NCBI RefSeq assembly: GCF_003991155.1 | Contig: NZ_CP031294.1 | Reading direction: 5' to 3' (one strand) | Length of the DNA stretch: 64,000 nucleotides | Source of the DNA: Escherichia coli | Lineage (GTDB): Bacteria; Pseudomonadota; Gammaproteobacteria; Enterobacterales; Enterobacteriaceae | In this document: one piece after another, positions 31,199 to 45,176 of the stretch | Position numbering within the stretch: position 1 is the stretch's first letter | Layout: each line of letters begins with the position of its first letter | Position numbers and translations under genes: made by a program | The notes under the pieces: model-generated | What the model was told of the DNA's origin: nothing | Databases searched by the model: none | The model's input: only the letters and a program-made list of their open reading frames with translations

Positions 31199-31830
31199 TA
31201 TTCGTCCTCCCCTTCACTTCCATCATCTGTCGCATCAAATTCGCTTAGAGCTTCTTCTTCCAACGTCTCAAGCAATTCGTCATCGATGATTTCAGGCTCG
31301 TCGTCTTCCTGACGTAATTTCGCCACCTGGGAAGGCGTAAGCTCACCAAATACCAGGTTCGGAATTTCTTCCTCGTCATTTTCCGCATGATCCATGCCCA
31401 ATGCTTTGGACGAAACTTCAAAGCATTTTGCAAGGGTATTACTGGCTCTCTGTAAGCTCTTGAGAGAATCCTCAATCGCCCCTAAAGGCTTACCCTCACG
31501 TTTGGCCGTAGTGACTTCGACCATCACCATCTGCCCCAACGCATACGCCCAGCCGTCATAACGTGTACGACGTTCTTCTATCTTTTCCGCACGGGCTTTA
31601 GCGCGAAGCTCTGCGTCAGATTTAAGAGACTCACGAACCATCTTCCCAACAGAGTCCGCGCCTTTCTCTAATCCTCGCTTTTTGAAATGTCTGGAGAGTG
31701 TTTCACGACGAATGCCGTACTCTTCCTCCAGCTTTGAGAGTGTATATTCGCCTGACGTCCATTTGGCTTCAGCTTCGGCCCACTCCGCTGGTGTCAGGCG
31801 AGTTTTTACCTCGTCTTTTTCGACCGTCAT
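31198..31830 (-). CDS. terminase small subunit candidate (HTH, acidic C-terminus)
   Basis: 210 aa, start of terminase large subunit overlaps its stop; N-terminal HTH-like segment. Confidence 0.5.
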   Translation of the reverse strand: MTVEKDEVKTRLTPAEWAEAEAKWTSGEYTLSKLEEEYGIRRETLSRHFKKRGLEKGADSVGKMVRESLKSDAELRAKARAEKIEERRTRYDGWAYALGQMVMVEVTTAKREGKPLGAIEDSLKSLQRASNTLAKCFEVSSKALGMDHAENDEEEIPNLVFGELTPSQVAKLRQEDDEPEIIDDELLETLEEEALSEFDATDDGSEGEDE

Positions 31831-38738: not shown

Positions 38739-39389
38739 ATGGCTAACATTATCATTTCTAAAAAATCCATCATTGAAGCTGCTTCCATTGTATCCGATGA
38801 ACTGCGCGAAAAAGCAGATCTGGCAACTCAAACATATAACGAACATTATAAAAATGGTACGCACACTAAAGCAGACAAAGCAAATATGCAAGCTGCGACC
38901 ACTAAACTTGCTTACTTCATCAACAACGTCGTAAACGCAGTAGAAGACGAAAAATTATGCTCTGTTTTCTACTATGCGATTAAAGCAAGCAAACAAGCGC
39001 CAGAAGTATTTTTCCGTGATGCAATGACTAATAGTTATTCTCTGGAAAAACTGGTTTATCTGGTTAAATCAATTAAATCTGGTAAATGCGTTTATTCCAT
39101 CGCTGATATGTCTGGATCTCGTGTATTCGCTTTAATCGATATGATTAACGACGAGATCGACACGTTCACTAATGGCGCTGTTTTCGATTTAATGAATGAA
39201 GCTAAAAAAGCGTGTGAAATTAAATTGGACGCTGGTTATACTCAAGCCAACCAGTTGATCAATCTTTGCGAACGTCTTGGACTTGTTGAAAAAGTCAAAG
39301 GAGCTGGGAGCGCGAAAGCTGGTACTCAGCAATATCGCTTCATTAAAAATGATTTCTACAATTATTTAGCTGATGCTTTCAAAGCGTAA
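38739..39389 (+). CDS. hypothetical protein (AT-rich)
   Basis: 216 aa ORF with upstream promoter candidate and downstream hairpin. Confidence 0.55.
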   Translation: MANIIISKKSIIEAASIVSDELREKADLATQTYNEHYKNGTHTKADKANMQAATTKLAYFINNVVNAVEDEKLCSVFYYAIKASKQAPEVFFRDAMTNSYSLEKLVYLVKSIKSGKCVYSIADMSGSRVFALIDMINDEIDTFTNGAVFDLMNEAKKACEIKLDAGYTQANQLINLCERLGLVEKVKGAGSAKAGTQQYRFIKNDFYNYLADAFKA

Positions 39390-39437
39390 TTAATGGAATC
39401 AAGCGCCCACTATGGGCGCTTTAAAGGAGCTTTGAAA

Positions 39438-39641
39438 ATGGTCAGCTATGACAAGATCCGCGCGGAATATCGCGCAAAGTATCGCGCTTATAAACTAGAA
39501 TTAATCGATGATTTAATCGCGCAACGCGACCAATTAAATTTTACGTTTTCTGATTTGCTTAACAGCAAGCGAGATTGCAAGCGCAAACGTGAATACTTAC
39601 GTTTAAGCGCATTAATCGGAAAACTTCAAAATTCTATTTAA
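39438..39641 (+). CDS. small hypothetical protein
   Basis: Start at ATG preceded by AAAGGAG; ORF track version starts inside the upstream hairpin. Confidence 0.35.
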   Translation: MVSYDKIRAEYRAKYRAYKLELIDDLIAQRDQLNFTFSDLLNSKRDCKRKREYLRLSALIGKLQNSI

Positions 39642-39661
39642 TTTTTTTAAGGAGCTTAATC

Positions 39662-39892
39662 ATGTTTGTTCTTATCGCTGGCGTTAACGTCCATAACGAA
39701 TATTATGTTAATCGCATCGCTGGGATCGCTGGTTACGCTGGGCGCGCAGTCGAGTTTATCGATGAAACAACGCGTAAAATTGATTTATTGAGCGACCAGG
39801 AGCGAAAAAAAGCAGACGTGAACGACGCTGATATATTTTTAATGTTAAAAGCGTTTGTAGAAATGGGATTTAAAATCAGTTTACACAAATAA
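39662..39892 (+). CDS. small hypothetical protein
   Basis: 76 aa, SD AAGGAG upstream; followed by two tandem terminators. Confidence 0.4.
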   Translation: MFVLIAGVNVHNEYYVNRIAGIAGYAGRAVEFIDETTRKIDLLSDQERKKADVNDADIFLMLKAFVEMGFKISLHK

Positions 39893-39897
39893 AATCG

Positions 39898-39925
39898 AGC
39901 GCCCACTATGGGCGCTTTTTTCGTT
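39898..39925 (+). terminator. intrinsic terminator (gagcgcccac-tat-gggcgct + T-run); same hairpin also at 39401-39422
   Basis: Stem-loop and T6 run read directly. Confidence 0.7.
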
Positions 39926-39942
39926 TCCAATACTTCCACAAT

Positions 39943-39970
39943 AACGCGCCATTGATGGCGCGTTTTTTAT
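39943..39970 (+). terminator. second tandem intrinsic terminator (aacgcgccat-tga-tggcgcgtt + T-run)
   Basis: Stem-loop and T6 run read directly. Confidence 0.65.
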
Positions 39971-40383
39971 TGTCTTTAACTCACTCCAACAACATAAAAA
40001 TAAGCGCCAAAATAACGCCATAAACGCGCTTTTATATCCTTACCAGTACATACCCATTACTTAACACATTAACGCGCTTAAAACGCGTTATATTGCGCTA
40101 TAGCGTATGGTTAATCATTGGCTTTTAGTCTTGCTATGTGATCCGCGTTTATTTGTCGGCGCGGATCGGCATTTTGTTTTGTTCCGTATCCGCTCGCGTA
40201 TTATGTGCGCGTGATTTTTCACATAATCACACCACTTAATCACGTATGTGATTATGCTACGAAAGAAATCTGGATGTCTCAGGCGACGAAAGTCATCATA
40301 ATTTTCCCCGCTCGCCTGTCCGACAACCGCTGGTTGGATTCCACCAGCTTCCCGATGTTTTTTTCTACATAAAGGCGAATGCA

Positions 40384-40460
40384 GCCGTTTCCCGAAAAAA
40401 TCCTGGCCGTTTCCCGTCGGCTCATGAATACGTTCCTCGCCGTTTCTGAAAATTTCCCTG
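40384..40460. repeat. three iteron-like repeats GCCGTTTC(C/T)(C/G)
   Basis: gccgtttcccgaaaaaa / gccgtttcccgtcgg / gccgtttctgaaaatttccctg read directly. Confidence 0.5.
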
Positions 40461-40509
40461 CGGCAGCTGGTGGCTATAGAGAAAGGGCCGTTTCTGGCCC
40501 TCTTCTCAG

Positions 40510-40992
40510 TTACACGCCATCAAGGATGTGGATGCGGTTGCTTGCGTATACATTCAGCATAAAGTTAGCGCAAAACAGTTTCCATGTATCAACGCCAGCG
40601 GTATACGTAATGTTTTTGCATTTAATCGCATTGTTGGCGATCCGCATCCCCTGCGATACTGCTTCATCGTCGGAAAATTTGAACGACGATTGAGTTTTAA
40701 TCCAGACAGAAATCTGCGTAGCGAACTCAATCAGCTTGGACTGGCAGAATCGCCCGGAGCGCACCGGAAAGACGAACGTTCCGAATCCAGAATTTACCAC
40801 ATATGCTTTCTCAAATACCCGCGAGTAACGACGATTGCCAATGATGTCGCGTGCAATAATGCATTTTTCTTGTGCTGACAGTTCTACCGTCTCATTGTCG
40901 CGCCATGCACCAAGTACTCGTTTTTCAATGTCAGAGAACGTTACAGCGATATTGCCATGTGCGGGTGCGTTTACAGTAGCGATAAAATTCAT
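40510..40992 (-). CDS. hypothetical protein
   Basis: 160 aa; conserved family-2 box immediately upstream of start. Confidence 0.55.
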   Translation of the reverse strand: MNFIATVNAPAHGNIAVTFSDIEKRVLGAWRDNETVELSAQEKCIIARDIIGNRRYSRVFEKAYVVNSGFGTFVFPVRSGRFCQSKLIEFATQISVWIKTQSSFKFSDDEAVSQGMRIANNAIKCKNITYTAGVDTWKLFCANFMLNVYASNRIHILDGV

Positions 40993-41009
40993 GATTAATT
41001 CCTTATCGT

Positions 41010-41045
41010 AAATAACAAATTGTTTTCTTGTTGGTGTTAATTATC
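41010..41045 (-). promoter_or_regulatory. family-2 promoter/operator-like box (AACA-N3-TGTT core + TCTTGTTGG extension)
   Basis: aaataacaaattgttttcttgttggtgttaattatc read directly; about 20 bp upstream of ATG 40992. Confidence 0.6.
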
Positions 41046-41167
41046 GTTGTACGAATAAGGCGTCAAAGTGGAAAGTTGCGGTAGCCGGACGGGAACAGGT
41101 GGGTTTGTCGGTTGCCTGGAGGTAAGAGGTTGGTGTTTTTAGCCTGCGGGAAACAGGATGGTCATTT

Positions 41168-41191
41168 AAGGCCACCAGCATTGGTGGCCTT
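41168..41191. terminator. GC-rich hairpin (aaggccaccagcattggtggcctt); near-identical hairpin at 41651-41674
   Basis: Inverted repeat read directly; the two copies share flanks gtcatttaag / ccttaat. Confidence 0.45.
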
Positions 41192-41196
41192 AATCT

Positions 41197-41478
41197 TTAG
41201 TGGAGCAGACCGATGTCGATGGTATCCCCTGAATCATCCACACGGATCATCAGCATGGCAAAGGCGTTTAGTGGATAGCTTGCGTGCCATTCAGGGAAGC
41301 GGTCATCTCGCATGAAGTCGGCAATGTCGTAAACGCATCCCTCAAAGTGGAAGAATCGCGTGCTTACCTGCTCGTCATAATCCACATGATCCATTTCTTG
41401 CTGTTCTGTTTCCGGCAAGTCCAGCCATGATTCAAGAAATACATTTTGTGCTTTAGGGGTAATGGTGAAATCAGTCAT
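41197..41478 (-). CDS. small acidic hypothetical protein
   Basis: Start set at ATG 41478 with GAGGA SD; family-2 box upstream. Confidence 0.5.
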   Translation of the reverse strand: MTDFTITPKAQNVFLESWLDLPETEQQEMDHVDYDEQVSTRFFHFEGCVYDIADFMRDDRFPEWHASYPLNAFAMLMIRVDDSGDTIDIGLLH

Positions 41479-41495
41479 GAGCATATCCTCACTGC

Positions 41496-41529
41496 GTAAA
41501 CATGTTGTTTTCTTGTTGGTGTAATTATC
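41496..41529 (-). promoter_or_regulatory. family-2 promoter/operator-like box
   Basis: gtaaacatgttgttttcttgttggtgtaattatc. Confidence 0.6.
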
Positions 41530-41813
41530 GCAGTGTAGATAAGGCATAAAAGAAGTTAATACAGGCTGAATACACAAGAAAGGTTCTGGAAGTTGATAGC
41601 CAGGTTTCAAACTAACCTTCGGTTATTAAAAGTCATTTAAGACCACCAATGCTGGTGGCCTTAATAATTATCGCCCGATTACGCTAAGGATCTTTTCCTC
41701 AACTGATTTGTTGTTGCGACTAAACTGCCTTGCGTATCTGATGACAGAAGAGGCGTTTTGCTTTCTGACCATCTCGGCTCTTTCCTTCAGGCGTTTCTTG
41801 AAATCGCCCATAT

Positions 41814-42188
41814 TTACCACCAGGCGCAGAAGGTCAGTCTGTTATTGTGAAAGTCGTGGTTCTTAATCAGATCTTCCACAAGCTCTTTCAACTCCCCCAC
41901 ATCATGCCAGTAACCTTCATCGTACTCCTGACTGCCGAAGAAAAAACCTTCCCGGGTAGGCAAGTACTCTTCGCAATTACTTTCGTTTATGTGCATCAAA
42001 TGAGCCTTCAGAAAACAAATGTCATTCATCGTTAATTCTAAAAGCTCACAATTTTCGACTTCACCTACGTTGCGCTCCATCCACCCAACGAGCGCATTGA
42101 ACTTACGGAAGTAAGCAACCTGCTTTCTGGATGCCTCGTTATTCAGATCGTTTTTAGGCTGTGTCTCGATATAGATATCAAGTCCCAT
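41814..42188 (-). CDS. hypothetical protein
   Basis: Start set at ATG 42188 (MGLDIYIE) with AAGGAAA SD. Confidence 0.45.
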   Translation of the reverse strand: MGLDIYIETQPKNDLNNEASRKQVAYFRKFNALVGWMERNVGEVENCELLELTMNDICFLKAHLMHINESNCEEYLPTREGFFFGSQEYDEGYWHDVGELKELVEDLIKNHDFHNNRLTFCAWW

Positions 42189-42242
42189 GATGGTTTCCTT
42201 ATTAAGTTGCTTCAGTGAAATCATTTTCACAAATCAGATAAG

Positions 42243-42266
42243 GCAGAAAACAAATTGTTATCGGGC
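42243..42266. promoter_or_regulatory. family-2 palindrome core (agaaaacaaattgtt), inverted orientation relative to the other copies
   Basis: Read directly. Confidence 0.5.
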
Positions 42267-42305
42267 ATAAGAAAATGGCGCGGTTTACGCGCCATTCAAA
42301 GAGGA

Positions 42306-42701
42306 TTAAGCGAATACGCTTTCAGGGATTAAGGTGTCAGCAGGAATGCCGGAGGTAATGCGCAGGCCGTACTGACCAATCCAGGTAGTGTTGGTATTCA
42401 GGCTGGAGGCGAATACGGTGTTAACCATATTCATCATGGTTTCAAACACCTCTTCATCAACCTGGCGGAAGTAGTTCTCGATTTTCAGCAGCAGCGGGTC
42501 AGTTGCATCGAAAATAGACTGGTATTGAGTCGCGTACTCGCCGCCGGAGGCATCACCTTTACGCACGATCGTACTGGCCTGGACTTCGGCACCAGTTTCG
42601 GTGTTGTACGTAACAACGGTGATTTTTGCCACATTCTTACCTTCGGCGGTTTCAGAGGCATAGTAAACATCAACTGTCAGTTTTTCGCGTTTAACGGTCA
42701 T
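42306..42701 (-). CDS. hypothetical protein
   Basis: Start set at ATG 42701 (MTVKREK) with GGAGAG SD; family-1 palindrome and terminator upstream. Confidence 0.5.
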   Translation of the reverse strand: MTVKREKLTVDVYYASETAEGKNVAKITVVTYNTETGAEVQASTIVRKGDASGGEYATQYQSIFDATDPLLLKIENYFRQVDEEVFETMMNMVNTVFASSLNTNTTWIGQYGLRITSGIPADTLIPESVFA

Positions 42702-42764
42702 TTCACTCTCCGTAGTGTTTTGGTTATTTTTATATTCTATGATCGTAAGTATGTACTTACAATA

Positions 42765-42792
42765 CAAAAAAGCCCCGTAAGGATGGCGGGGC
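42765..42792 (-). terminator. intrinsic terminator (agccccg-taaggatggc-ggggct with T-run on minus strand)
   Basis: Read directly; downstream of gene 42828..43139. Confidence 0.65.
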
Positions 42793-42827
42793 TGTCGTAC
42801 TGTCGACTAATTACCACTTGCACATTA

Positions 42828-43139
42828 TCAGGCTATTGCCATCACTGATGCTCTCTGAATCTCTTGCTGGGCCACGCGGTTAACTTCCATCAAAGCCAGT
42901 TCGAGCTGATGTTCCGGCCACATTCTTTGAAATGCCACCCAGCCTTTTCCACGCTGGCGACGAACATTCATTACATAACGAGTAAAGGTGTATTTATCGA
43001 AAGACACCGCTGTTTCACGGAACAGACGAATAGAGGTTCCATTGGCAACGATGTCCAGCAAAGTTAATTGAGCAACCAGCGCAGGCTTCTCTTTTCTCTT
43101 CTGGTCTTTGTCCAGACCAAGAACCAATGATTTTTTCAT
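42828..43139 (-). CDS. hypothetical protein
   Basis: Start set at ATG 43139 (MKKSLVLG); family-2 box upstream. Confidence 0.5.
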   Translation of the reverse strand: MKKSLVLGLDKDQKRKEKPALVAQLTLLDIVANGTSIRLFRETAVSFDKYTFTRYVMNVRRQRGKGWVAFQRMWPEHQLELALMEVNRVAQQEIQRASVMAIA

Positions 43140-43147
43140 CACAACTC

Positions 43148-43186
43148 CGTAAACAACTTGTTTTCTCAATGGCGTAAATAATACCA
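43148..43186 (-). promoter_or_regulatory. family-2 promoter/operator-like box
   Basis: ccgtaaacaacttgttttctcaatggcgtaaataatacc. Confidence 0.6.
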
Positions 43187-43292
43187 GTAAGAAAACGGCT
43201 ACAAAGCATATTGATCAGGTGCATGAGCGATATGCAGGTTCTTCCCTGCGGCTATAGAGAAATTAAGCCAGCATTGCTGGCTTTGGTTAGGT

Positions 43293-43622
43293 TTACTCGA
43301 ATACTTCAAGAAACTCCTGAACGTCCCAATGCTGGACAAGGTGAAGATAGACCTTAGAAATAACATCATTCTCGCTATCGCATGTGAAGTAGTACTTCTG
43401 GCTGCGGTTGTATGTGTCCACACAAAATTCGCTCATATCCATAAAGTCAGCATCTTCACCCATGTCGCAAATCATCAAAGCAGGTGCGTCATCACGAGTC
43501 ATCAGCTCAAGCACCCACCGCGAATTGATCAGAGTGGAAGACCAACCTTCTAACTCATAAAACTGATCAAACTCTTTTTGAGTTAATTTCTTGATTTGGT
43601 TGATGTCGATATTTGCAAACAT
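43293..43622 (-). CDS. small acidic hypothetical protein
   Basis: Start set at ATG 43622 (MFANIDIN) with AAGGA SD; family-2 box upstream. Confidence 0.5.
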   Translation of the reverse strand: MFANIDINQIKKLTQKEFDQFYELEGWSSTLINSRWVLELMTRDDAPALMICDMGEDADFMDMSEFCVDTYNRSQKYYFTCDSENDVISKVYLHLVQHWDVQEFLEVFE

Positions 43623-43630
43623 AAAGCAAT

Positions 43631-43666
43631 CCTTAAACAACATGTTTTCTTGATGGTGTTATTATC
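43631..43666 (-). promoter_or_regulatory. family-2 promoter/operator-like box
   Basis: ccttaaacaacatgttttcttgatggtgttattatc. Confidence 0.6.
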
Positions 43667-43792
43667 GCAATAACGCACAGGTGAAAAAGGATTTTATTCC
43701 GGTGAATGTGGTTTTGGCAGTGAGTTTTCAGGTTCAGTACCGAGTACACTTTTTACATTATTCTGATTTAGTGGCCGAAGGTGGCTGGTGGG

Positions 43793-44125
43793 CAGAATAA
43801 TCCTCTCCCCGAAAACCTACTGAAATCGATTGTGACCCGTTGGCTGTCTGGCACAATTACGCTGTAACTGGGCATTCAGAGGGAATCCAGCGGTAAGTAA
43901 GTTCGCCTGCACGTGAGCGCCTCTCTTCTTCCCGCACATTACAGGTGGGTAGCCGCAACTCTCCCTCTCGCTATACCGGTACGCCGCCGTTCCTGAACCG
44001 GCATCGAGCCTTCTCCCGAAATCCACACAGGCAACTCGACCGTTTCCCTGAAAACCTCCAGCCGTTCCCCGAAGGCAACCCAGCCGTTTCTGTAGCGGGA
44101 TGCAACCTTTTCCCTGTATGGACCG
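43793..44125. repeat. array of about 7 iteron-like repeats (C(C/T)GTTTCCC(T)GAA-type)
   Basis: ctccccgaaaacc, cttctcccgaaatcc, ccgtttccctgaaaacc, gccgttccccgaagg, gccgtttctgtagc, ccttttccctgtatgg, gccgttcctgaacc read directly. Confidence 0.5.
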
Positions 44126-44229
44126 AAGGCTGACCGTAGGGGTGTTACGGGGGATAAAATCAGGAGTTGAATAAATACGAAAAAGGAGGCGACACCCCTC
44201 CTTCTCTCCCCACTTATACATACCTGGCT

Positions 44230-44830
44230 TCTTCGCTATACATGTTGTGTTTTATTCGTGTTTTATCTGTCTCAACCTCTCTATGGACGTTAATACTCAC
44301 TCCTTCCAGAACGTTCTATACGGCGACTAATTCTGTTGGTGAATTGGGTGTGTTGTTCTCTCTGTCGGTGTATGTGGTTTCGTTCGTTTTGCGGTGGTTC
44401 TTCTATGGGGTGTTCTCGTCGTTTTGGTGATTGTTCTTCTCCGTGTATGGAGTAATGGCAGGTGGGCGATTCCTTTCGTTATTGTGTTTGAGTTGTTTGT
44501 CTGGAGTGCGTGAAGGGCTTTTGTAGTTATTCGTGTGTTGGGTAATGGCGTTTCCCGTGATTGTTCTGTTTCGTGTCTTTTGGGATTGAGAGAAACCTTG
44601 CGGTTACAGGCTTCGTTGGGGTTTCAGTGATTCTGGTGTTTCTTCGCTGTTTGGGTAATGGCGTGTCGTGGGTATCGCGCGTATGGAAGTTTCGAATTGC
44701 CTGTGAAAGTTAGGTTGGTTGTCCGGTAGCCTGAGAAGAAGAGGTGGGTCTTTTCGGTAGCCTGCCATAAAGAGGTTGGTTGTTTTTGGTAATGGCATAT
44801 GTGTTATTTAGTTGTTTTGTTATGCCTGAA
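44230..44830. repeat. strongly strand-skewed (G+T-rich on plus strand) non-coding tract with degenerate ~60-bp repeats (ggtaatggc..., cggtagcctg...)
   Basis: Base composition and repeated words read directly; ORFs in the tract are low-complexity and rejected. Confidence 0.5.
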
Positions 44831-45036
44831 AATAAGTTGTTTATATGGTTATGTAACGCAACGGGAACGATTTTGAGCGTGTGTTTTTGTTGGTAGTGTG
44901 TTGGGTCGTCTGTGGTGAAAATTGGACGCTGTGGCGCTGTCTGCTGCGTAGAATTACGGGTATAAGCAGTGATGTGTGAAAACGTCAATTTTTTAGACCA
45001 AATCGGGTGAAAGCGTTGATGTTTCGTTGATCTGTT

Positions 45037-45074
45037 ATTCAGTTGTTTTCTTATTGGTATAAACAACTGTAACC
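45037..45074. promoter_or_regulatory. family-2-related box with split arms (cagttgttt-N12-aaacaactg)
   Basis: Read directly. Confidence 0.45.
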
Positions 45075-45176
45075 TATTGATATTTAAGGATGTGATTCCA
45101 GGCATGGAAGGGGAGTAGTGGCGATCAACGGATTCTTATAGAAAAGAATCAAATTGTGACCGCCATTATCAATGTT

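Follow-up and report, generated by a model that had tools for sequence, protein, structure and literature searches.

A 64,000-nucleotide (nt) stretch of Escherichia coli contig NZ_CP031294.1, hereafter called the window, raises the question of why two hairpin sequences are each used twice at the ends of small genes, and whether the genes between the copies are exchanged at these sites. In comparisons with known genomes, the segment from 39000 to 44000 is 100% identical to the E. coli plasmid NZ_OW849379.1 (110.7 kb, non-mobilizable), is 95 to 98% identical to the phages Cyrano (97.6%), CMS-2020a, and PhiR41_1, and partially matches Klebsiella phage-plasmids and Salmonella phage SSU5. Judged by these matches, the window is therefore a phage-plasmid of the SSU5/pHCM2/pLF82 type. 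Its region from 38.7 to 46.2 kb is a hyperplastic accessory region. We consider it likely that the repeated hairpins of this region, which are of the terminator type, serve as short-homology linkers for the shuffling of gene cassettes.

Approximately 20 perfect hairpins with stems of at least 8 bp occur in the window, and only two of them, hairpins A and B, are re-used. A sequence-only reading of this DNA had reported hairpin A twice, and the two copies are borne out at 39402 to 39420 (A1) and 39898 to 39916 (A2). The hairpin A pattern (AAGCGCCCACTATGGGCGCT at 39401 to 39420, where only the first base mismatches; GAGCGCCCACTATGGGCGCT at 39897 to 39916) has two matches in the window when up to one mismatch is allowed, versus 0.00 expected from 100 shuffles. 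Its structure is an 8- to 9-bp stem (AGCGCCCA / TGGGCGCT) closed by the 3-nt loop CTA, and a 31-nt block that takes in the flanks is 90% identical between copies.

For hairpin B, the same reading had correctly recognized two copies whose central hexamers, agcatt and aatgct, are exact reverse complements, but the pattern it had written (8 + 6 + 8 nt) gave 0 matches because the element is 20 nt rather than 22 and the pattern was thus two bases too long. The corrected pattern, GTCATTTAAGRCCACCANNNNTGGTGGCCTTAAT, matches exactly twice, at 41161 to 41194 (B1) and 41632 to 41665 (B2), versus 0.00 expected. In hairpin B, a 12-bp stem (TTAAGGCCACCA / TGGTGGCCTTAA) and a 4-nt loop form a palindrome of 28 nt; the loop reads GCAT in copy 1 and ATGC in copy 2, again exact reverse complements. 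Copy 2 carries one stem change, GACC for GGCC (G to A, leaving a G-U pair on the transcribed strand). As inverted repeats, B1 and B2 are 96% complementary, whereas as direct repeats they are just 82% identical. What had been described as identical flanks is mostly stem (ttaag / cttaa); outside the palindrome, the copies share no more than GTCAT to the left and T to the right.

The interval bounded by B1 and B2 (slot B) and its neighbors comprise the following features.

40510 to 40992, minus strand: gene g1, 160 amino acids (aa), PHROG 1641, the conserved anchor gene used to fetch related loci.
41161 to 41194, minus strand: hairpin B copy 1 (B1), stem 41166 to 41193, plus-strand loop GCAT, -20.1 kcal/mol, z = -4.7.
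41197 to 41478, minus strand: gene g2, 93 aa, PHROG 1845, an optional cassette gene between B1 and B2.
41632 to 41665, minus strand: hairpin B copy 2 (B2), stem 41637 to 41664, plus-strand loop ATGC, -17.4 kcal/mol.
41668 to 41820, minus strand: gene g3, 50 aa with a GTG start, a small open reading frame (ORF) 5′ of B2.

B1 is placed 3 nt past the stop codon of g2, and B2 is placed 3 nt past that of g3, where it is weakly terminator-like on the minus strand. If genes between identical hairpins are swapped among relatives, as had been proposed, then related loci should differ in what these intervals hold. We compared approximately 80 related loci in total (numbers prefixed with L), fetched as 3 GenBank relatives, 16 IMG/VR loci with the B palindrome, 76 IMG/VR loci with a g1 homologue, and further loci with hairpin A. 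The comparison supports the proposal, and both slot B and the corresponding interval at hairpin A (slot A) are polymorphic. Mapping of breakpoints by blastn, using 38 to 47 kb of the window against the first 19 loci, placed a breakpoint at 41194|41632 in six loci, and the two alignments that meet there overlap on the hairpin block. Slot B states were counted in the 32 loci that have both g1 and g3. In 16 of these, the distance from g1 to g3 is 207 nt, with one hairpin and no gene, and in 13 it is 678 nt, with two hairpins and the additional 471 nt of the g2 indel, within which the cassette proper (g2 and its leader repeat D1, described below) occupies 41195 to 41631. Distances of 751, 1010, and 1275 nt, found in one locus each, correspond to other cassettes.

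The single hairpins of slot B are chimeras, with a B1-type left flank and a B2-type right flank. The switch from B1 to B2 sequence is found at three points, all inside the shared 34-nt block: at GTCATTTAAG in L032, at GCCACCA in the class of L027, L024, L025, and L038, and at TGGTGGCCTTAAT in the class of L030 and L004. Other genes occupy the same position. A 310-aa gene, N, is flanked by B hairpins without g2 in L034 and with g2 in L065, and in L045 a different 104-aa gene lies between a g2-type D1 leader and a B-type hairpin. When a tree is built from the flanking 1.6 kb by the unweighted pair group method with arithmetic mean (UPGMA), the filled, empty, and alternative states are interspersed, and tree neighbors can be of unlike state (empty L042 beside filled L049 to L051; filled L029 beside empty L025 and L039). 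We also considered that the entire segment with g2 might invert between B1 and B2, and rejected this, as g2 has the same orientation in all loci.

Slot A lies at the end of a plus-strand operon and is organized as follows in the window.

39402 to 39420, plus strand: hairpin A copy 1 (A1), AGCGCCCA-CTA-TGGGCGCT, -15.1 kcal/mol, 12 nt past the stop codon of a 216-aa gene.
39438 to 39641, plus strand: gene X, 67 aa, PHROG 6145, with no Pfam or PADLOC match.
39646 to 39657, plus strand: ribosome-binding site (RBS) linker TTTAAGGAGCTT, repeated at 39421 to 39432 as TTAAAGGAGCTT.
39662 to 39892, plus strand: gene Y, 76 aa, PHROG 1585, of unknown function.
39898 to 39921, plus strand: hairpin A copy 2 (A2) with its T-run, 5 nt past the stop codon of Y, -15.6 kcal/mol, z = -3.7.
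39943 to 39970, plus strand: hairpin T2, AACGCGCCA-TTGA-TGGCGCGTT with a T-run, a predicted second terminator.

Across 80 loci, slot A shows nine arrangements built from three gene families, with hairpin A at the boundary and one hairpin when the slot is empty. The most frequent is [A]X[A] (24 loci, including SSU5 itself), followed by the arrangement of the window, [A]XY[A] (19 loci), then [A]Y[A] (15 loci) and [A] alone (9 loci). The rarer ones are [A]Y'[A] (4 loci), [A]XY'[A] (3 loci), [A]Y'[A]Y[A] (2 loci), and [A]YY[A] and X[A] (1 locus each). Thus, gene X is missing from [A]Y[A] relatives such as Cyrano and pLF82, and gene Y can be absent, alone, or replaced or preceded by its paralogue Y' (~45% identity), which comes with a hairpin A and an RBS of its own. 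The Y' and Y units of L022 each consist of hairpin A, TTTAAGGAGCTTAATCATG, and a gene; their first 112 nt are 78% identical, and they diverge further on. The position of the T-run differs with the state of the slot: the single hairpin of an empty slot has a T-run, whereas in filled slots an RBS follows the proximal copy and only the distal copy has the T-run.

Breakpoints also fall at repeats other than the two hairpins. The indel of gene X joins at the repeated RBS TTTAAGGAGCTT (39432|39645, 13-nt overlap), and a crossover zone lies in the core of a D1 repeat, as listed here together with the repeats concerned.

41014 to 41068, minus strand: D1 repeat upstream of g1, a putative promoter, operator, or leader of ~55 nt, with other copies at 41498 to 41552, 43152 to 43206, and 43636 to 43690 and a partial copy at 42223 to 42256.
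43634 to 43650, minus strand: crossover zone in the D1 core, where an extra ~360-nt cassette of most relatives is missing from the window.

The extra cassette comprises a 216-nt gene and a B-family hairpin, GCCACC-GTGCT-GGTGGC. At two replacement breakpoints, 38140|38452 and ~45173|45957, no obvious repeat is present. Since the mapped junctions fall at hairpins, an RBS, and a D1 core, exchange therefore appears to occur at several short conserved regulatory motifs, of which hairpins A and B are two. The proposal that modules are exchanged at hairpin terminators is accordingly upheld for the swaps at A and B, but has to be amended in that other repeats are used as well and that only one copy is a canonical terminator.

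That copy is A2. Both A2 (39898 to 39921) and T2 (39943 to 39970) have the sequence makeup of an intrinsic terminator, a GC-rich stem-loop followed by a U-rich tract, and among the copies of hairpins A and B only A2 would be canonical in this respect. A1 is followed directly by TTAAAGGAG, the RBS of gene X, with no T-run. The space from A1 to the start of X is too short to hold a promoter. Transcripts of X and Y must therefore run through A1, in line with A1 being a poor terminator that is probably read through. A1 and B1 may thus be read-through or stabilizer hairpins. We also considered whether hairpin A is part of an N-terminally extended X ORF (39393 to 39641), and rejected this because the ATG at 39438 has a strong RBS in front of it and no such frame exists at A2.

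These observations can be joined into one scheme. Hairpins A and B would be terminator-type 3′ stem-loops that the phage-plasmid family re-uses at several gene ends, and each small gene of the minus strand would be a single unit with a promoter- or operator-like leader (D1) and a 3′ hairpin. Because the copies are identical over 19 to 34 nt, the hairpins could act as short-homology linkers. Homologous recombination between two copies would delete the gene between them and leave one chimeric hairpin. Run in reverse, or between the resident element and a relative that co-infects the cell, the process would insert or swap a cassette. A slot A cassette, made up of an RBS, a gene, and a hairpin, would enter immediately behind the resident stem, so that the proximal copy would lose its T-run and be read through, and the distal copy would keep the T-run and terminate.

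The second phenomenon at these sites is inversion of the hairpin loops. The sequence-only reading had pointed out the inverted loop of the B pair. The flip is real and recurrent; it is a separate mutational phenomenon and not in itself evidence of exchange. Loop-inverse alleles are found among relatives in all four hairpin families with 3- to 4-nt loops, namely A, T2, B, and a further hairpin C.

43265 to 43283, minus strand: hairpin C, AAGCCAGC-ATT-GCTGGCTT, 3′ of gene g6 and resembling B.

For hairpin A, the A1 loop of PhiR41_1 is TAG rather than CTA, and among 108 distinct hairpin A contexts CTA occurs in 83 and TAG in 15 (~14%). Single-substitution variants of CTA account for 6 contexts, and the remaining loops are further inverse pairs or partners (TTA/TAA, TCA/TGA, and CAA/TTG). 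The TAG alleles form 13 clusters at different sites and in different lineages. In five of the 13, the nearest CTA allele has 80 of 80 flanking bases identical while all three loop bases differ. The inverse pairs of T2 are TCAT/ATGA (10 and 7), TTGT/ACAA (10 and 5), and TTGA/TCAA (1 each). Hairpin C has ATT in 10 and AAT in 9 distinct contexts, and hairpin B has the pairs GCAT/ATGC and GCAG/CTGC. When allele pairs of A, T2, and C with identical stems and at most one mismatch in 80 flanking bases are considered, most of the loop differences are exact inversions. By comparison, the hairpin at 42274, a control with a 5-nt loop, shows point changes only, and no inverse alleles were seen among relatives in the four hairpins with 5- to 7-nt loops (42274, 40486, 38466, and 44180).

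At the B1 site, the GCAT orientation is kept throughout the family, including lineages with a 6-nt loop (AGCATG or AGCATC), which makes ATGC, found in B2 and in many empty alleles, a derived flip. Since all 13 filled slot B loci have GCAT in B1 and ATGC in B2 (ACGC in one), this combination is an inherited haplotype rather than ongoing switching. Loop inversion is recurrent, or homoplasious, and is a general feature of these hairpins rather than a peculiarity of B. The changes have the features that define the known class of hairpin-loop inversions, in that several bases are replaced at once by the exact reverse complement with stems and length unchanged. That these differences are instead independent point substitutions, or sequencing or assembly artefacts at palindromes, is scarcely credible. 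CTGC and ATGC, and likewise AAT and ATT, are one base apart, so a single mutation is possible there, but from CTA to TAG and from GCAT to ATGC no loop base stays the same, beside 80 identical flanking bases, and the exact inverse of CTA is found in 15 contexts as against 6 for all single-substitution variants together. Point mutation cannot account for 3- to 4-base changes that hit the exact reverse complement next to invariant flanks. Independent assemblies from GenBank and IMG/VR share the inverse alleles, which have also gathered secondary substitutions (TTG, TAA, and GCAA), and this makes an artefact unlikely.

Loops of this kind can be inverted because the stems are perfect palindromes, a consequence that is separate from cassette exchange. 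A template switch within the hairpin during replication, or recombination between its arms, would invert the loop in one event, and B1 (GCAT) and B2 (ATGC) would differ by a single flip of this kind. Intra-strand template switching has been described as a source of loop inversion (Monttinen & Loytynoja 2022, PMC8794818), and the small inversions of plastome hairpins have been attributed to recombination between stem arms (Kim & Lee 2005, as cited in PMC12928735). As in the sections of this literature drawn on here, the loop becomes its exact reverse complement between perfect inverted-repeat stems with its length kept, the change recurs homoplasiously among close relatives, and short loops of ~4 nt predominate. 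What differs is the setting, with terminator-type hairpins of a phage-plasmid, four families within 5 kb, and a high frequency. Template switching or recombination of the stem arms, without effect on fitness, is the most likely origin of the flips, and inversion would probably be neutral for a terminator. They provide a clean natural record of palindrome-driven mutation, and because one flip mimics 3 to 4 substitutions, they hold a practical warning for typing based on single-nucleotide polymorphisms.

Several observations weigh against the hairpins being terminators that act as preferred sites of exchange. Only three T's follow A1, whose 3′ sequence is UUUAAAGGAG, and B1 is followed on the gene strand by AUGACCAUCC with no U-tract, so the stem plus U-rich tract of an intrinsic terminator is absent from both and the designation is not established for either copy. 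A consensus promoter scan made no call at D1. The 19 nt of hairpin A are invariant even where the adjoining 216-aa protein is only 60 to 73% identical, a degree of conservation that exceeds the needs of a generic terminator and hints at an additional sequence-specific role; selection for a binding or processing site, homogenization by exchanges, or a dedicated role in recombination could each account for it. In addition, the location of breakpoints at gene ends could be due in part to viable recombinants having been selected and not to crossover being preferred there, each cassette event may be an insertion or a deletion, the IMG/VR loci are phylogenetically non-independent samples, and the flank tree is a crude UPGMA tree open to distortion by recombination.

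It is possible, and we hold this only tentatively, that the repeats are conserved mainly as regulatory binding or processing sites, acting as a DNA palindrome or an RNA stem, so that their re-use reflects co-regulation and recombination is incidental. Stems that are strongly conserved around loops of either orientation look like a symmetric site with an indifferent center, A1 and B1 have no U-tracts, and the neighboring D1 palindrome AAACAAnTTGTTT is dispersed in the manner of a regulon (13 sites versus 0.48 expected). However, A and B have two copies each in 64 kb, always directly 3′ of stop codons, and no binding protein is known for them. This explanation is moreover compatible with the recombination evidence and alters only the reason for conservation. 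Selection as the sole cause of the pattern is unlikely. Illegitimate recombination anywhere, with only gene-end junctions surviving selection (accretion of "morons"), would make the hairpins passive boundaries, the genes' own terminators, alike through shared cassette ancestry and not promoting exchange. The two replacement breakpoints that lack a hairpin repeat fit such a process, as does the moron-like layout of the minus-strand genes, each with a promoter-like element and a 3′ hairpin. Yet the junctions are scar-free and lie at three positions inside the shared 34-nt block, slot B has changed state repeatedly, and hairpin B, the D1 core, and the RBS each coincide with indel overlaps of 13 to 34 nt.

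The invariance of hairpin A over diverging flanks, the array-like layout [A]gene[A]gene[A], the tandem 44-nt hairpin units of some relatives, and the integrase, RuvC, and SbcCD-like genes annotated in Cyrano could also point to recognition sites of a dedicated site- or structure-specific system, either attC-like or involving a phage resolvase or nuclease, that would actively mobilize the cassettes, with the flips as a footprint of cruciform processing. We regard this as very improbable. The elements are perfect palindromes of 19 to 28 nt that lack the R/L boxes, extrahelical bases, and 57- to 141-bp size of attC sites, the part of the window that was studied yielded no IntI-type gene, and crossovers occur also in unrelated motifs (RBS and D1) and at variable points in the block, as expected for homology-driven exchange. 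A related reading would make hairpin A, and perhaps also B, more than a terminator, namely the element recognized in an integron-like, structure-directed exchange of cassettes that is specific to this family and works without IntI; it seems quite improbable as well. The phage-plasmid's own T4-type recombination and nuclease proteins would then act on extruded hairpins. If true, this would explain the frozen 19-nt sequence across the SSU5/pHCM2/pMT1 family, the insertion of cassettes always between stem and T-run, and the frequent loop flips. Mobile hairpins of the repetitive extragenic palindrome or bacterial interspersed mosaic element type (REP/BIME), or similar to miniature inverted-repeat transposable elements, were rejected in view of two copies per 64 kb and a fixed position after stop codons. 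Short-homology exchange at conserved linkers thus remains our preferred explanation.

The closest parallel is found in the promoter-early stem-loops (PeSLs), regulatory cassettes of T4-like myoviruses (Arbiol et al. 2010, PMC2839356; Comeau et al. 2014, PMC4122927). For PeSLs, exchange of this kind was demonstrated experimentally: where one phage has a gene between two motifs, its relative has one chimeric motif, cassette mini-circles were detected during infection, promoter and terminator activities were measured, and crossovers lie at variable positions that include the stem-loop. The likeness to the present region extends to the conserved stem-loop motifs between small ORFan genes of a hyperplastic region (A twice, B twice with the related C, and D1 four to five times within 39.4 to 43.7 kb), to the contrast between a gene bounded by two motifs and one chimeric motif, with crossovers that vary and may lie beside the loop, and to cassettes that would stay transcriptionally insulated in an element whose T4-type recombination genes are annotated in Cyrano. 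The differences are that the host is an SSU5-type siphovirus phage-plasmid and not a T4-like myovirus, that the linker of slot A is a hairpin with an RBS and no promoter, that the hairpin and the promoter-like D1 of the minus strand are ~100 nt apart and not fused, and that the stems (AGCGCCCA and GGCCACCA) are unrelated to the GGGG...CCCC stems of the PeSL consensus, which further comprises an AT-rich upstream region and an early, sigma70-like promoter. Moreover, the cited sections on PeSLs do not mention loop flipping. Because the host and stem sequences differ, the hairpin system is best classed as an analogue of PeSLs and not as a member.

Morons of lambdoid and other phages, promoter-gene-terminator units that are described in the discussion of the first of these reports (PMC2839356), are not believed to move via flanking regulatory sequences. 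The minus-strand units resemble morons in that one accessory gene, equipped with a promoter-like element and a 3′ hairpin, has been inserted among other genes, and differ from them in that the junctions fall inside shared flanking repeats.

Sites of the attC type are imperfect palindromes of 57 to 141 bp with R''/L''-L'/R' boxes (GTTRRRY core) and extrahelical bases, and an IntI gene is nearby. Slot A resembles an integron cassette array in its promoterless ORFs, each followed by a palindrome, with one copy when empty and two when filled. Unlike integrons, it has neither attC architecture nor IntI, its palindromes are much shorter, and its crossover points vary. An identification as attC sites was rejected on this architecture, with no GTTRRRY core at the hairpin edges and variable crossovers, and no formal attC model was run.

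In the limited collection of literature that was searched, neither cassettes bounded by hairpins nor flipped loops were found described for SSU5-type elements or for phage or plasmid terminators. Shuffling of cassettes at linkers and flipping of loops are both known elsewhere and appear to be undescribed for this family. Phage-plasmids of the SSU5/pHCM2/pMT1/pLF82 type are common in Enterobacteriaceae. If our preferred explanation is true, then the use of hairpin and promoter motifs as joints provides a concrete, testable rule for the gain and loss of small genes, and the PeSL idea would no longer be confined to T4-like phages but would also cover an element whose recombination toolkit is similar. 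The motif pattern would also mark the likeliest sites for new accessory genes in related plasmids. In PLSDB, g1 is found in 590 plasmid records (218 from Escherichia) and the interior of g2 in 257 (98 from Escherichia).

Other features of the accessory region surround the two slots. The plus-strand operon (helicase ... 216-aa gene, X, and Y) closes at A2 and the terminator-type hairpin T2. A 545-nt noncoding gap (39965 to 40509) follows 3′ of T2 between the convergent transcription units. The gap contains GCCGTTTCY four times within 112 nt, especially at 40384 to 40495 (five in the whole window versus 1.1 expected), and several terminator-like hairpins, such as those at 40139 to 40168 and 40195 to 40211. 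It could carry iteron-like repeats or a small RNA. A search of 37 to 46 kb against Rfam (E ≤ 1) returned only sub-threshold matches to small RNA families, which arise from the double terminator at 39894 to 39978, and none at the gathering score.

From 40510 onward, the minus strand carries an array of small single genes: g1, g2, g3, the ORF at 41814 to 42188, g4, g5, and g6. Each has a stable hairpin 3 to 12 nt past its stop codon (z from -2.1 to -5.2), and D1 precedes most of them. D1 contains a GATAAT box resembling a -10 element, which is TGn-extended in three copies, and the palindrome AAACAAnTTGTTT, and its function as a promoter is an inference only. At up to one mismatch, the palindrome occurs in the window at 2313, 31871, 31896, 41013, 41498, 42248, 43151, 43635, 44830, 46270, 46321, 59088, and 59817. 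At the sites checked, it lies roughly 12 to 140 nt upstream of minus-strand gene starts, including those of cassette genes and of a gene starting at 31830 that, by comparison with Cyrano, is read as the terminase small subunit. The palindrome looks like a dispersed operator of a single regulator that forms the core of D1.

The proteins of the cassette region all belong to PHROGs of unknown function, and they gave zero Pfam or PADLOC matches and nothing informative on function. Gene g3 overlaps the 3′ end of an upstream 124- or 138-aa ORF (41814 to 42188 or 41814 to 42230) by 7 nt. The annotation by the Prokaryotic Genome Annotation Pipeline has the larger ORF only, and that of Cyrano has g3 and the larger ORF. 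Because g3 is 86 to 100% conserved across the 32 loci, B2 probably closes a two-ORF unit. The label "MIT family metal ion transporter" that SSU5 (L182, 6441 to 6644) and PHROG 6145 give to protein X is not credible; at 67 aa the protein seems far too small for a transporter, it has no Pfam match, and a misannotation has probably been propagated.

Some relatives have tandem, geneless units of 44 to 48 nt (hairpin A, T-run, and spacer) in two to three copies (L152, 1497 to 1603; L114, 8080 to 8142; L133, L135, and L146); the terminator unit itself duplicates. In L152 and L114, these copies are followed by a degenerate one with a loop in the TAG orientation (AAGCGCCCATAGTGGCGCT). Hairpin T2 (39943 to 39964) and the g4 terminator (42274 to 42296) share 8-mer arms in swapped order (ACGCGCCAT...ATGGCGCGT versus ATGGCGCG...CGCGCCAT), which may be a coincidence or a trace of template switching.

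The depositor annotation of Cyrano (OV696614.1, 52241 to 67874; L181) lists UvsY, a gp32-like single-stranded DNA-binding protein, an exonuclease, RecA, SbcCD-like proteins, and RuvC. This siphovirus-type phage-plasmid is also annotated with metG, nrdAB, thyX, the DNA polymerase III alpha subunit, and three tRNAs. Finally, the ~1.5 kb from 43623 to 45176 have no annotated gene in the RefSeq record, whereas two ORFs are annotated in the homologous part of Cyrano. With just 66 to 97% identity among relatives, this is the most divergent part of the region.

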